A stretch of 64,000 nt of DNA from Escherichia coli O127:H6 str. E2348/69 (GTDB taxonomy: Bacteria; Pseudomonadota; Gammaproteobacteria; Enterobacterales; Enterobacteriaceae), in assembly GCF_000026545.1 (NCBI RefSeq), contig NC_011601.1. One strand, 5' to 3'. The position numbers and the translations under genes are program-made. Every line of letters starts with the position of its first letter. The first letter of the stretch is position 1. The notes under the pieces are model-generated. The model did not search any database, was not told the DNA's origin, and was given only the letters and a program-made list of their open reading frames with translations. Shown piece by piece: positions 32,998 through 36,445 of the stretch.

Positions 32998-33368
32998 AGA
33001 TCTCCTGCAAGGTTTTCCCTGAGCAAATTTGCCAGACAGAGTAATCCAGCAAATCGTTCGGGGAAACCTTACCTGTCGCAAACTGCGACTGATTGGTTAA
33101 TTGTCGAACATTTAATCGACTGAAACGCTTCAGCTAGGATAAGCGAAACGTGGAATAAAAGGAATGATTGTCCAGTCAAAGAAGACAATTATCTGACTTA
33201 CGTCACGTTTTCAGCCCCGCCCCTGTGGAATTTATTCCACTTTGCAGAATCACGAATAAGCGTAGCAAAATCTTTTCGTTGTGCCGTCACAAACCCTGAC
33301 TTATATCAGAATATGACTGATGCAGCGTCGATATTATCCGCAATACGTCCGAGTTTCGGAGTACTCCA

Positions 33369-33800
33369 ATGATGACATTGCCCTACCCATATTCTTCCTC
33401 CGCACGTTTTTACGCGCTGCGCCTGCTCCCCGGGCAGGAAGTTCTCTCCCAATTACGCGCCTTCGCGCAGCAACAACAACTCCACGCCGCGTGGATTGCA
33501 GGTTGTACCGGCAGTCTGACTGACGTCGCCTTACGCTATGCCGGGCAAGAAAACACTGCCCTGCTAAGCGGTAAGTTCGAAGTCATCGCATTGAACGGCA
33601 CGCTGGAACAGAGTGGTGAACATCTTCATCTCTGCGTTTCCGATCCACACGGCACGATGCTTGGCGGTCATATGATGCCCGGCTGTACCGTGCGGACCAC
33701 GCTTGAACTGGTGATCGGCTGCCTGGAGGAACTGGCGTTTAGCCGCCAGCTTTGCGCGCTTTCTGGTTACGACGAGTTGCATATTTCCCCCGTTAAATAA
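33369..33800 (+). CDS. DUF296/PPC-domain protein, function unknown
   Basis: 143-aa ORF; PPC-fold pattern (…LSGKFEVIALNGTL…HLHLCVSDPHGTMLGGHM…); first gene of a plus-strand cluster divergent from epd. Confidence 0.7.
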   Translation: MMTLPYPYSSSARFYALRLLPGQEVLSQLRAFAQQQQLHAAWIAGCTGSLTDVALRYAGQENTALLSGKFEVIALNGTLEQSGEHLHLCVSDPHGTMLGGHMMPGCTVRTTLELVIGCLEELAFSRQLCALSGYDELHISPVK

Positions 33801-33822
33801 CTATTTTCAGAGAGGTTTTCTT

Positions 33823-34401
33823 ATGGCGCGTCGCCACTTTTCCAGTCAGGCACTGGTGTTGATCGTTATCTCTATCGCCATCAATATGATCGGCGGACAA
33901 CTGGCCAGCATGGTTAAATTACCTATTTTTCTCGACTCCATCGGCACACTTATTAGCGCGGTACTGCTTGGTCCGGTGATCGGGATGCTGACCGGTTTAC
34001 TGACCAATTTACTCTGGGGATTGCTGACCGACCCGATCGCCGCCGCATTTGCGCCCGTCGCGATGGTCATCGGCCTGGTCGCCGGTTGGCTGGCGCGAGC
34101 GGGTTGGTTTCGCACCCTGCCAAAAGTCGTTGTTAGCGGCGTGATTATTACGCTTGCGGTAACGGTCGTCGCTGTACCGCTGCGTACTGCGCTGTTCGGC
34201 GGCGTGACAGGAAGCGGAGCCGATTTGTTCGTTGCCTGGATGCACTCGATGGGGCAAAACCTGGTGGAGTCGGTGGCGATTACGGTGATAGGCGCGAACC
34301 TGGTCGATAAAATTCTCACAGCGGTGATTGTCTGGCTTTTACTGCGTCAGCTGCCGATTCGCACCACGCGCCATTTTCCGGCAATGGCTGCCGTGCGCTA
34401 A
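33823..34401 (+). CDS. ECF transporter substrate-specific (S) component, substrate unassigned
   Basis: 192-aa ORF, about six TM helices, small-residue-rich helices (ISAVLLGPVIGMLTGLLTNLLWGL); Shine-Dalgarno AGAGG upstream; stop abuts the next ATG. Confidence 0.7.
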   Translation: MARRHFSSQALVLIVISIAINMIGGQLASMVKLPIFLDSIGTLISAVLLGPVIGMLTGLLTNLLWGLLTDPIAAAFAPVAMVIGLVAGWLARAGWFRTLPKVVVSGVIITLAVTVVAVPLRTALFGGVTGSGADLFVAWMHSMGQNLVESVAITVIGANLVDKILTAVIVWLLLRQLPIRTTRHFPAMAAVR

Positions 34402-35109
34402 ATGCATCCGTTTACATCCTTAACGCTGTGGGCGCTGGCGGCCTGCACCACGCTTATCCTGCCCACACAGACAATATTGCCAGTCTATAGCGCGGCGACC
34501 TTTTTCTGCCTTATTGCGCTAAAGGCCACGCGGCGGCGGGCAAAATATGTCGTCTGGCTGATGTTCTCGCTGGGGGCTGGATTGTGGCTGGTGCACGGTG
34601 GCTGGCTGACAGAATGGCTAAGCGGCACGCCACGCTCTCCAGAACGGTGGGCGCATGCTATTACGCTCTGGTTGCGGATTCTGGCGATTGTTTCAACCTC
34701 ACAGTTGTGGATGCAGTACGTCCCCGTGCAACGTTTTATCCGCGCTTTGTTTGCTTCTCGCCTGCCGCCGGGCGTCGCTTATCTGTTTGCCGGGCCATTA
34801 TTGGTCGTTGAGCAGTTAAAACGGCAATTGGCGATTATTCATGAAGCGCAGCGCGCCCGCGGCGTGCCGCTGGATGAGGGCTGGTATCAGCGTTTACGTG
34901 CGATGCCCACGTTAATTATTCCGCTAACACACAATGCGCTAAACGATCTTGCTGTCCGTGGTGCGGCGCTGGATATGCGGGCATTTCGAATCAACAATAG
35001 GCGCACTACGTTATGGGCACCAGCCGATAGCACCCTACAACGCGTAGCACGTTACACCATGATATTGCTAATGCTGGCTGAATTCGGAGCGTGGATATGG
35101 TTACGTTAG
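34402..35109 (+). CDS. ECF transporter transmembrane (T) component, EcfT/CbiQ family
   Basis: 235-aa membrane protein with the coupling motif region (…AIIHEAQRARGVPLDEG…). Confidence 0.75.
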   Translation: MHPFTSLTLWALAACTTLILPTQTILPVYSAATFFCLIALKATRRRAKYVVWLMFSLGAGLWLVHGGWLTEWLSGTPRSPERWAHAITLWLRILAIVSTSQLWMQYVPVQRFIRALFASRLPPGVAYLFAGPLLVVEQLKRQLAIIHEAQRARGVPLDEGWYQRLRAMPTLIIPLTHNALNDLAVRGAALDMRAFRINNRRTTLWAPADSTLQRVARYTMILLMLAEFGAWIWLR

Positions 35110-35774
35110 AACAGTTTCGCTATTGCCCGACACACTCAACGCATCCTCCGTTCTGTTATGACTTTCACTATGTCAAACCGGGGATGGTCGCCATCTTTGG
35201 TGACAACGGCAGTGGCAAAAGTACGCTGGCGCAGCTGATGGCGGGCTGGTATCCGGACTTTCTACCAGGAGAGATAACCGGCACGGGGACGCTTCTCGGT
35301 ACGCCCATTGGGCGTCTCCCGCTTAATGAACAATCCGCCACCATCCAGCTCGTCCAGCAATCGCCCTATTTGCAGCTCTCCGGCTGTACCTTTAGCGTGG
35401 AAGAAGAAGTTGCCTTTGGGCCAGAAAATCTGTGTCTTGCTGAAAAAGAGATTATGGCGCGGATTGACGCCGCCCTGGCCCTGACCGAGTGCCAGCCGTT
35501 GCGCCATCGTCACCCGGCAACACTCTCCGGTGGAGAGACACAGCGTGTGGTCATCGCCTGCGCCATCGCGATGCAGCCAAAGCTCTTAATTCTTGATGAA
35601 GCCTTTAGCCGCCTGACGCCGAAGGCCAGCGAAATGCTGTTGCAGCGCTTACAACACTGGGCGCTTGAACGTGGTTCGCTGATTATTCTTTTTGAACGTC
35701 ATCACACACCTTTCCTGAACCACTGCCAGCAAGCGTGGCAATTGCAAAACGGAGCGCTCCAGCCACTATGTTAA
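35091..35774 (+). CDS. ECF transporter ATPase component (EcfA-like ABC ATPase)
   Basis: Walker A GDNGSGKST, ABC signature LSGGETQR, Walker B LLILDEA; GTG at 35091 or ATG at 35097. Confidence 0.8.
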   Translation: MDMVTLEQFRYCPTHSTHPPFCYDFHYVKPGMVAIFGDNGSGKSTLAQLMAGWYPDFLPGEITGTGTLLGTPIGRLPLNEQSATIQLVQQSPYLQLSGCTFSVEEEVAFGPENLCLAEKEIMARIDAALALTECQPLRHRHPATLSGGETQRVVIACAIAMQPKLLILDEAFSRLTPKASEMLLQRLQHWALERGSLIILFERHHTPFLNHCQQAWQLQNGALQPLC

Positions 35775-36445
35775 CGTTAAATCAGATATCTTATCGCTGA
35801 CCTGGCGCGGCAACGGATTGTCTTTGCGACATTTCTCTGCAACTCAAACAAGGTGAATGGCTGGCGCTGACCGGCGACAATGGCGCGGGAAAATCGACGC
35901 TGTTACGAGTAATGGCAGGTCTTCTTACGCCCACAGCCGGTACGGTTATGCTGCAACAACAAGCGATGAAAAACCTGAAAAACCGCCAGCGCGCGGCAAA
36001 GATTGGCGTACTGTTTCAGGAAGCGGAAAATCAGCTTTTTCACAGCACCGTTGCTGACGAAATCGCATTTGGTTTGATACTGCAAAAATGCCCGGCGGAT
36101 GAAATCACTCAACGTACCAATGCTGCCCTGCAATGCTGTCAGTTAGCAGACACTGCCAGCGCGCATCCGTTAGATCTGCATAGTGCGCAGCGACGGATGG
36201 TCGCCGTCGCCTGCCTGGAAGCACTCTCTCCGCCACTATTGCTACTGGACGAGCCGAGTCGGGATTTTGACGAAAATTGGTTGAGCGTGTTTGAAAGCTG
36301 GCTGGAAAAGTGCCGCCAGCGAGGCACGAGCGTCGTAGCAATCAGTCATGACGCCGCATTTACCCGGCGTCATTTCTCTCGTGTGGTGCGACTGGAAGAT
36401 GGTGTAATCAGGAACGTTAATCCATCAGACGATATTCACCCGTAG
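35768..36445 (+). pseudogene. second ECF ATPase (EcfA'-like) interrupted by an in-frame TGA at codon 11
   Basis: ATG at 35768 overlaps the upstream stop; frame reads MLTLNQISYR-TGA-PGAATDCL…LTGDNGAGKSTLL… (Walker A), degenerate signature LHSAQRR, Walker B LLLLDEP, ISHD; the first in-frame ATG after the TGA (35912) lies past Walker A. Confidence 0.6.

Follow-up and report, generated by a model that had tools for sequence, protein, structure and literature searches.

The stretch of DNA analysed here (the window) consists of 64,000 nucleotides of contig NC_011601.1 of Escherichia coli O127:H6 str. E2348/69 (RefSeq assembly GCF_000026545.1), and the system in question is a block of five plus-strand genes found between epd and yggC, which code for a PPC/DUF296 protein, LmiA, and for the predicted components of an energy-coupling factor (ECF) importer. 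With gene coordinates taken from the RefSeq/PGAP annotation, converted to the window, and from the called open reading frames (ORFs), the block starts with the lmiA orthologue (33369-33800), the 143-residue product of which matches PF03479 PCC (PPC, formerly DUF296; Pfam E 2.7e-27) and contains a His85/His87/His101 triad. There follow: (i) the substrate-capture (S) component (33823-34401; 192 residues), orthologue of z4268 and related to PF12822 and NF045596; (ii) the transmembrane coupling (T) component of EcfT/CbiQ type (34402-35109; 235 residues), orthologue of z4269 and related to CbiQ and EcfT chains; (iii) a first ATP-binding cassette (ABC) ATPase (35097-35774), orthologue of z4270, with canonical Walker A, LSGGE signature and Walker B sequences and assigned to ECF_ATPase_1; and (iv) a second ABC ATPase (35768-36445), orthologue of z4271, which has a degenerate signature (LHSAQRR) and is a pseudogene in this strain, labelled 'internal stop' by PGAP. 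The spacing along the five genes is +22, 0, -13 and -7 nt, and the natural reading of genes abutting or overlapping in this manner is that they would form one transcription unit. The neighbours, both on the minus strand, are the divergent epd (31978-32997) and the convergent yggC (36417-37130), with which the 3' end of the second ATPase gene shares 29 nt. The initial annotation, which had described five co-oriented, tightly packed genes for a DUF296/PPC protein, an S, a T and two ATPase (A) components, is thus confirmed by the coordinates and by the Pfam and NCBIfam matches.

Identity of the block and of its importer genes

In enterohaemorrhagic E. coli (EHEC) O157:H7, O-island 119 (OI-119) is a 3.12-kb element of five genes, z4267-z4271 (Liu et al., mBio 2020, PMC7667037), where z4267 codes for the DUF296 protein LmiA, z4268 and z4269 are 'hypothetical' and z4270 and z4271 are 'ABC ATP-binding' (PMC7667037). 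LmiA is induced at low Mg2+ via binding of PhoP to GACTTACGTCACGTTTT, as found by electrophoretic mobility shift assay (EMSA) and mutagenesis; it binds to a 17-bp stretch upstream of LEE1/ler and acts as an activator of the LEE (locus of enterocyte effacement), on the basis of EMSA, footprint, chromatin immunoprecipitation-quantitative PCR (ChIP-qPCR) and reporter data; and it promotes adherence and mouse colonisation (PMC7667037). Deletions of z4268-z4271 caused no adherence phenotype (PMC7667037), a result that is uninformative on transport. The LmiA regulon has been extended to acid resistance and biofilm in EHEC (Gut Microbes 2024, PMC11657066). Neither paper mentions ECF, and the island is described as horizontally acquired (PMC7667037, PMC11657066); unnamed enteropathogenic E. 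coli serotypes were also tested in PMC7667037, the main text of which does not mention E2348/69. The LEE itself lies outside the window.

Judged by its sequence, the five-gene block represents O-island 119 as carried by E2348/69, because the same five genes are found, the size is similar (about 3.25 kb is missing from K-12 at the junction, versus the 3.12 kb published), the LmiA proteins of the two strains share 93% identity as well as the residues His85, His87 and His101, and the PhoP site is an exact match. Thus, the block and OI-119 of O157:H7 EDL933 have in common the five genes at the epd-yggC junction, the LmiA triad and the PhoP site, and differ in that ATPase 2 of E2348/69 has a private nonsense mutation; and, whereas the downstream genes are hypothetical or generic ABC genes in the OI-119 papers, the same genes are here assigned to an ECF importer. 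The locus is, therefore, already known, being published as OI-119/LmiA and annotated by PGAP as ECF, and the earlier statement that such a pairing was not familiar from the literature has to be withdrawn, since the block is the published OI-119 and its DUF296 gene is LmiA (PMC7667037, PMC11657066).

The S component matches PF12822 (ECF_trnsprt, Pfam E 1.8e-8), and its top NCBIfam match is NF045596 ('CD3073 family putative ECF transporter S component', E 8.8e-40, 136.2 bits), at a score below the curated 180-bit cut-off of that model, which counts against the overall explanation given below; by this measure, the protein is to be placed in a sister clade of the NF045596 CD3073 family and not within it. 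A profile built from 30 sequences of the S family also matches solved FolT-type S components (E 5e-11 and 4.5e-9). The T protein alone has a weak match to CbiQ (E 1.3e-4) and no match in a single-sequence search of the PDB; the corresponding 14-sequence family profile matches the solved EcfT chains 4hzu_T, 4huq_T and 5d3m_D with E ~2e-38. In the T component the AQxARG coupling motif is invariant (A149, Q150, R153, G154), and a second conserved Arg block (R..ALxxRxF) is present. The best NCBIfam models are ECF_ATPase_1 for ATPase 1 (E 2.7e-35) and ECF_ATPase_2 for the portion of ATPase 2 past the stop (E 1.1e-29). No solute-binding protein is encoded in the operon, the S, T and A genes are contiguous, and their order is repeated in 76 loci. 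By homology, S, T, A1 and A2 are an ECF importer and the earlier ECF assignment is correct, the hidden Markov model profiles (PF12822, NF045596, CbiQ, ECF_ATPase_1/2) placing the proteins in ECF families and not in other ones.

The four downstream genes are predicted to form a dedicated (group I) ECF importer. This group, described by Rodionov et al. in 2009, reportedly includes, e.g., BioMNY, CbiMNQO and the predicted QrtTUVW. Like group I transporters, the system has S, T and two ATPases in one operon, EcfT motifs and no solute-binding protein; it differs from them in the PPC protein as a constant fifth member, in ATPases of 225 residues, in one signature being degenerate throughout the clade and in the lack of a riboswitch. 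A metal-type (CbiM/NikM) S component, which was considered in view of PhoP/Mg2+ control and of the His triad, was discarded, the S component being of the PF12822 type.

Distribution and age of the operon

At least 80% of the block is found in 3319 of 5426 complete E. coli genomes, and the K-12-type junction in 2034 of them, so that within the species the locus is essentially a two-allele polymorphism. In K-12 MG1655 epd directly adjoins yggC and the block is absent, as the initial annotation had stated. ECF core components are stated to be absent from E. coli K-12 (PMC5372724); this holds for K-12 but cannot be extended to E. coli as a whole, since the ECF module is carried by 61% of the complete genomes. 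The description of the block as a variable accessory module stands in so far as it is polymorphic within E. coli, but not beyond, because the same epd-side site is occupied in at least 10 enterobacterial genera.

Indeed, a genome scan with a 10-sequence S alignment as query, run on one genome per species, gave at least 600 matched stretches, 576 of those listed being confirmed relatives, and epd adjoins the module in at least 25 loci from at least 10 enterobacterial genera. The epd-linked loci include those of E. albertii, Citrobacter, Klebsiella oxytoca, K. michiganensis, Kluyvera, Pseudescherichia, Superficieibacter, Enterobacter and Phytobacter. In Salmonella enterica (L003) epd is followed by PPC-S-T-A-A' in the same orientation and then by tktA, while Atlantibacter has the complete E. 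coli arrangement, including yggC-fumE-glpX-yggP-cmtA. The yggC product is a member of a family of nucleoside/nucleotide kinases (uridine-kinase/PanK-like; NF006742, E 1e-156); adjacency of yggC and the operon is observed in 14 enterobacterial loci, not including that of S. enterica.

Since the operon adjoins epd in Salmonella, Citrobacter, Klebsiella, Kluyvera, Atlantibacter and E. albertii, the K-12 state would be a loss and not the absence of an insertion. The yggC gene points in the same direction. Over the N-terminal 160 residues of YggC the K-12 and E2348 alleles are about 95% identical and about equally similar to other genera; over the C-terminal 77 residues the K-12 protein is 57-65% identical to those of the enterobacterial genera compared, and the E2348 protein is 96% identical to that of E. 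albertii and 64-78% to those of other genera. Because its yggC C-terminal third diverges, the K-12 allele would seem to stem from a replacement in which foreign DNA without the operon came in. The 3' third of yggC compared corresponds to 36417-36667 of the window and to L002:3201-3450 in the K-12-type locus. On these comparisons, the allele with the operon would appear to be the more ancient of the two, ancestral in Enterobacteriaceae, with K-12 having lost the operon.

The account given in the LmiA papers, namely that pathogenic E. coli obtained the block horizontally, as a virulence island, draws on its absence from K-12 and presence in many pathotypes, on the control of LEE, acid resistance and biofilm by LmiA in EHEC, and on a G+C content slightly above that of the flanks (0.53-0.58 versus ~0.50). 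It is, however, very improbable in the light of the occurrence of the block at the same position and in the same orientation by epd in Salmonella, Citrobacter, Klebsiella, Kluyvera, Atlantibacter, Superficieibacter, Phytobacter and E. albertii. Furthermore, neither mobility genes, nor tRNA genes, nor flanking repeats are found at the block borders, so that, of the features of a genomic island, a mildly raised G+C content is the one observed; the upstream control DNA of the operon is still present in K-12, where the alignment follows it up to about 33218-33245; the foreign-looking yggC end belongs to the K-12 allele and not to the operon-bearing one; and the operon is also found in commensal-type strains, such as Nissle 1917.

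The module is also found well outside the enterobacteria. Profiles built from the five E. coli proteins were used to search the ORFs of each locus, and, among the matches listed, 79 distinct loci with S homologues 46-99% identical were recovered, 76 of which have the PPC gene as the immediate upstream neighbour of S, in the same orientation, with T and the two ATPase genes usually next. Two Kaistia loci and one Citrobacter locus with an extended S ORF do not follow this pattern; one further locus starts just upstream of S. The module is found in: (i) Enterobacterales, including Proteus, Providencia, Morganella, Hafnia and Budvicia; (ii) Aeromonas, Wohlfahrtiimonas, Laribacter and other Betaproteobacteria; and (iii) Rhizobium, Brucella, Mesorhizobium, Paracoccus, Kaistia, Desulfobulbaceae, Synergistaceae and several Chloroflexi, the PPC-linked loci thus spanning Gamma-, Beta-, Alpha- and Deltaproteobacteria, Synergistaceae and Chloroflexi. 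Stop and start codons of the PPC and S genes, respectively, overlap in many loci. The flanks of the module are not conserved beyond the genus, and the five genes travel as a unit; as far as gene order across genomes can tell, PPC-S-T-A-A' is an ancient cross-phylum unit.

Clustering of flanking ORFs in the non-enteric PPC-linked loci gave no recurrent family other than a gene for a small protein similar to the C-terminal (DsrE-type) part of YedF, the remaining neighbours being genus-specific. The YedF-like gene (YedF itself being a selenium/sulfur protein) occurs next to the module in nine loci of Chloroflexi and of one betaproteobacterium, with a match to TIGR03527 (E ~3e-29) just below the cut-off (L055:9151-9546, L059:1317-1724, L061:5039-5401, L076:9165-9500, L077:5131-5556, L078:215-565, L079:5188-5553, L086:5198-5554 and L088:9172-9507). 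A few alphaproteobacterial loci adjoin genes for taurine/sulfonate binding proteins or choline sulfatase. In four Synergistaceae loci (L053, L065, L070 and L071) and in L007 the PPC and S genes are followed by one ORF of ~690 residues with two ABC domains, near which no T gene was detected; in L007 the fused ATPase is surrounded by three paralogous S genes.

Control region and second ATPase

The control region shared by epd and the lmiA operon (32998-33368) is 371 bp long when counted from the annotated epd start, and the leader of 290 bp first proposed counts from the start of the longest epd ORF. That the leader has no recognizable riboswitch is, however, upheld: a covariance-model scan of 32800-33900 (Rfam cmscan, E <= 10) returned a lone chance-level thermometer match inside epd, and in 11 diverse orthologous loci tRNAs were the only Rfam matches at the gathering threshold. 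A vitamin ECF operon under riboswitch control was, therefore, rejected, no known riboswitch being found in the 5' leader or in the 11 loci.

Alignment of the control region over ten enterobacterial genera reveals conserved blocks. On the epd side a near-invariant palindrome (CTGAAACGCTTCAGC, 33120-33134) across the ten genera resembles a Cra(FruR) box, and may be a Cra site in view of the Cra consensus and of the epd P0 promoter. The PhoP-binding sequence GACTTACGTCACGTTTT is found 75 bp beyond this box, on the plus strand at 33195-33211, as the single, exact match in the window to the published lmiA site of O157:H7, and a variant of it is kept in K-12 and in other genera in the alignments. 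The presence of this site gives substance to the initial proposal that the operon has its promoter in the intergenic DNA that it shares, divergently, with epd; a scan of the region for sigma-70 and terminator consensus sequences gave no match.

Closer to lmiA, two palindromes are candidate operators: CTGACTTATATCAG (33296-33309; consensus CTGATTTATATCAG), kept in all ten operon-bearing genera aligned, and the conserved TCCGAGTTTCGGA (33348-33360, plus strand), which overlaps the Shine-Dalgarno sequence (GGAG) upstream of lmiA and in which Superficieibacter has a single compensatory change, from A-T to G-C. An RNA hairpin over the lmiA Shine-Dalgarno sequence was discarded: it is present in the centroid fold, yet its energy is no better than that of shuffled sequences (z = -0.17).

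As to the second ATPase, the damage suspected in the initial annotation is real. Codon 11 (35798-35800, plus strand) is TGA (W11*) in E2348/69 and TGG in O157, ST131 and Salmonella, where the gene is intact, and the exact TGA version is confined to three E2348/69 assemblies among the 3212 genomes carrying the stretch, so that W11* is a private nonsense mutation. The two intact ATPases expected of an ECF importer are, therefore, encoded by the locus in general and not by E2348/69, in which lmiA, S, T and ATPase 1 are intact.

The position of the stop matters in view of an asymmetry between the two ATPases. In all 59 loci checked ATPase 1 retains LSGGE/QxQR, whereas the ATPase 2 signature is degenerate (DLHxAQRR, DLSLAWRKR or DLGYSERKR), so that the pair would have one consensus and one degenerate ATP site. 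The DLSLAWRKR or DLGYSERKR forms are those of Chloroflexi and Desulfobulbaceae, and E2348/69 has the LHSAQRR form. The Walker A of ATPase 2 (GDNGAGKS) would belong to the sole consensus site, because the other site uses the degenerate signature of ATPase 2 itself. As W11* precedes this Walker A, and the next in-frame ATG (35912) lies downstream of it, the importer would probably be inactive in E2348/69; by its sequence, it is probably dead in this strain, in which LmiA could still act.

Substrate of the importer and native role of LmiA

The best clue to the substrate comes from distant S homologues, 33-45% identical, that are not accompanied by a PPC gene. Twelve such contexts were read, and in eight of them genes for nucleoside-handling proteins are found beside S. 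The contexts read as follows: in a Limnochordales genome, GntR and an IU-nucleoside hydrolase precede S-T-A-A', which is followed by a 5'-nucleotidase; on a Haladaptatus megaplasmid a nucleoside hydrolase lies on either side of the module; in Enterococcus raffinosus the order is Crp, S-T-A-A', nucleoside hydrolase; in Izimaplasma it is a LacI-PfkB fusion, three hydrolases, S-T-A-A', a major facilitator superfamily protein and a fourth hydrolase; a Bacillota metagenome-assembled genome has LacI, S-T-A-A' and a PNP/UDP phosphorylase; on a metagenome contig a hydrolase gene overlaps S; and on two near-identical metagenome contigs S-T-A-A' is followed by a 'CD3072 family TudS-related putative desulfidase', similar to thiouracil desulfidase. 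Because the PPC-less S relatives cluster with nucleoside-handling genes, the substrate may be a ribonucleoside-type small molecule, possibly a pyrimidine or a thiolated nucleoside or base, an assignment for which the chances seem evenly divided; the sulfur flavour (thio-nucleoside or base) is to be taken as a lead.

Two known systems are of help in placing the importer. In the CD3073/CD3072 system (NF045596/NF045597) an S relative 44% identical to the present one sits in an S-T-A-A'-CD3072-like operon, whereas the E. coli clade has the PPC protein in place of the desulfidase. The QrtT/QueK-type queuosine salvage of C. difficile (PMC11130926, PMC11477304) shares with the present importer a PF12822 S component and relatives clustered with an IU-type nucleoside hydrolase. 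However, no preQ1 riboswitch was found by Rfam in the E. coli leader or in the 11 diverse loci, and no queuosine salvage gene (tgt, queK, queL) was noted in any context read, so that the system is set apart from QrtTUVW/QueT by context, and not by a sequence comparison with QrtT. E. coli itself synthesises queuosine de novo and employs YhhQ.

Alternatively, the importer could carry a non-nucleoside compound, such as a vitamin, a cofactor precursor or a metal under Mg2+ limitation, the nucleoside neighbours reflecting the specificity of other branches. This is unlikely, even though ECF S families do shift substrate at 33-45% identity, the operon is induced by PhoP at low Mg2+ in O157, the partner PPC protein carries a metal-type His triad and a heavy-metal P-type ATPase is found downstream in Synergistaceae loci. 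Also on its side, and weighing against a nucleoside, four of the 12 PPC-less contexts have no nucleoside gene, and a hydrolase is found in only one of the 76 PPC-linked loci, so that the substrate may have shifted in this clade. On the other hand, the S component belongs to the PF12822 type, for organic micronutrients, and not to the CbiM/NikM metal type, vitamin riboswitches are found neither here nor in the 11 diverse loci, clustering of the flanking ORFs revealed no recurrent vitamin-pathway gene around the module, and the one PPC-linked locus with a hydrolase, the Anaerolineae locus L087, encodes a pyrimidine nucleoside hydrolase similar to RihA/UriH within the operon, between PPC and S.

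LmiA is 79% identical to the Salmonella structure 2HX0 (crystal structures of the Salmonella orthologue, 2HX0 and 2NMU, have been available since 2006), and its AlphaFold2 model has a predicted local distance difference test (pLDDT) score of 95.9. It is a trimer-type PPC protein with an invariant three-His pocket that probably binds zinc. Over 35 diverse PPC sequences from several phyla 20 positions are invariant, including R18, P21, G48, S49, R56, A58, E71, H85, H87, G95, H101, T110, T111, E113, R126 and E136. No function has been assigned to any of the PPC/DUF296 structures (2HX0 and 2NMU of Salmonella, 2P6Y of VCA0587 and 2DT4 of PH0802), and, to our knowledge, no catalytic activity of PPC proteins is known.

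The native role of LmiA is almost certainly linked to the importer, as we infer from its gene being the first of the five-gene module from Chloroflexi to Proteobacteria. What LmiA does there is a more delicate issue. In the reading preferred here, to which about even confidence is attached, LmiA would be the cognate partner of the importer, most likely a ligand- or metal-sensing regulator, which attaching-effacing E. coli co-opted later for ler/LEE. This reading is favoured because EMSA, footprint and ChIP-qPCR data for LmiA are published (PMC7667037), because GntR, LacI or Crp genes take the same first position in the PPC-less relatives, and because PPC and hydrolase coexist in L087. Several observations weigh against it: the PPC fold has no known DNA-binding motif, and its nearest structural relatives outside the PPC family are zinc enzymes (the fold resembles zinc-dependent acetolactate decarboxylase); translational coupling of PPC to S is atypical of a regulator; and the LEE1 LmiA motif is absent from the window at <=3 mismatches, the operon's own promoter included.

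Those zinc-enzyme relatives are also what makes a different role conceivable, in which the PPC protein would chiefly be a zinc-dependent enzyme or a cytoplasmic partner that handles the substrate, e.g. by cleaving or desulfurising a (thio)nucleoside-like import, DNA binding being a secondary or in-vitro side activity. The residues conserved without exception across phyla, 16 of them polar or glycine and H85, H87, H101, E71, E113, R56 and R126 among these, resemble an active site, the stop/start overlap with S fits co-production, and the hydrolase of the PPC-less relatives is nearly always missing from the PPC-linked modules. The sulfur-handling neighbours (YedF-C-terminal-like and TudS-related proteins, taurine/sulfonate binding proteins and choline sulfatase) are consistent with it as well. 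Nevertheless, this role is doubtful, since footprinting, ChIP-qPCR and reporter data reveal sequence-specific DNA binding and regulation by LmiA (PMC7667037), and since L087 has PPC plus a RihA-like hydrolase, so that PPC is not a simple hydrolase substitute. The His triad may correspond to the zinc ligands of alpha-acetolactate decarboxylase (ALDC); ALDC, an established enzyme, is twice the length of PPC.

Taken together, the overall explanation that best fits the locus, and which is considered moderately probable, is that of an ancestral OI-119 operon made up of LmiA and a group I ECF importer. At low Mg2+ PhoP would activate the operon via 33195-33211, control that has been demonstrated in O157 only, with transcription proceeding away from epd; S would capture the substrate in the membrane, with EcfT as the scaffold and the two ATPases as a heterodimer, one of its ATP sites being consensus and the other degenerate; the K-12 lineage would have lost the unit by a replacement that also brought the foreign 3' end of yggC; and LmiA, originally the partner of the importer, would have been recruited later by attaching-effacing E. 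coli for ler/LEE. A stronger form, which must be regarded as tentative, is that, in this clade, the prokaryotic PPC/DUF296 proteins serve as obligate partners to an ECF importer of nucleoside type, sensing the import or processing it chemically via their invariant three-His metal pocket (the import being possibly a thiolated or otherwise modified nucleoside or base), with LEE control in EHEC and enteropathogenic E. coli as a late co-option and OI-119 as an ancestral unit lost by K-12.

What goes beyond the LmiA papers is, therefore, the apparent ancestral status of the block, the cross-phylum PPC-ECF module and the hypothesis of a nucleoside-type substrate. An ECF transporter is carried by many non-K-12 E. 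coli and by most Enterobacteriaceae, and the account of LmiA as a horizontally acquired regulator needs revision. The clustering of S relatives with nucleoside hydrolases offers a concrete hypothesis for the substrate and a route to the function of bacterial DUF296 proteins; if true, the obligate partnership of PPC and importer would provide the first biochemical role for DUF296.

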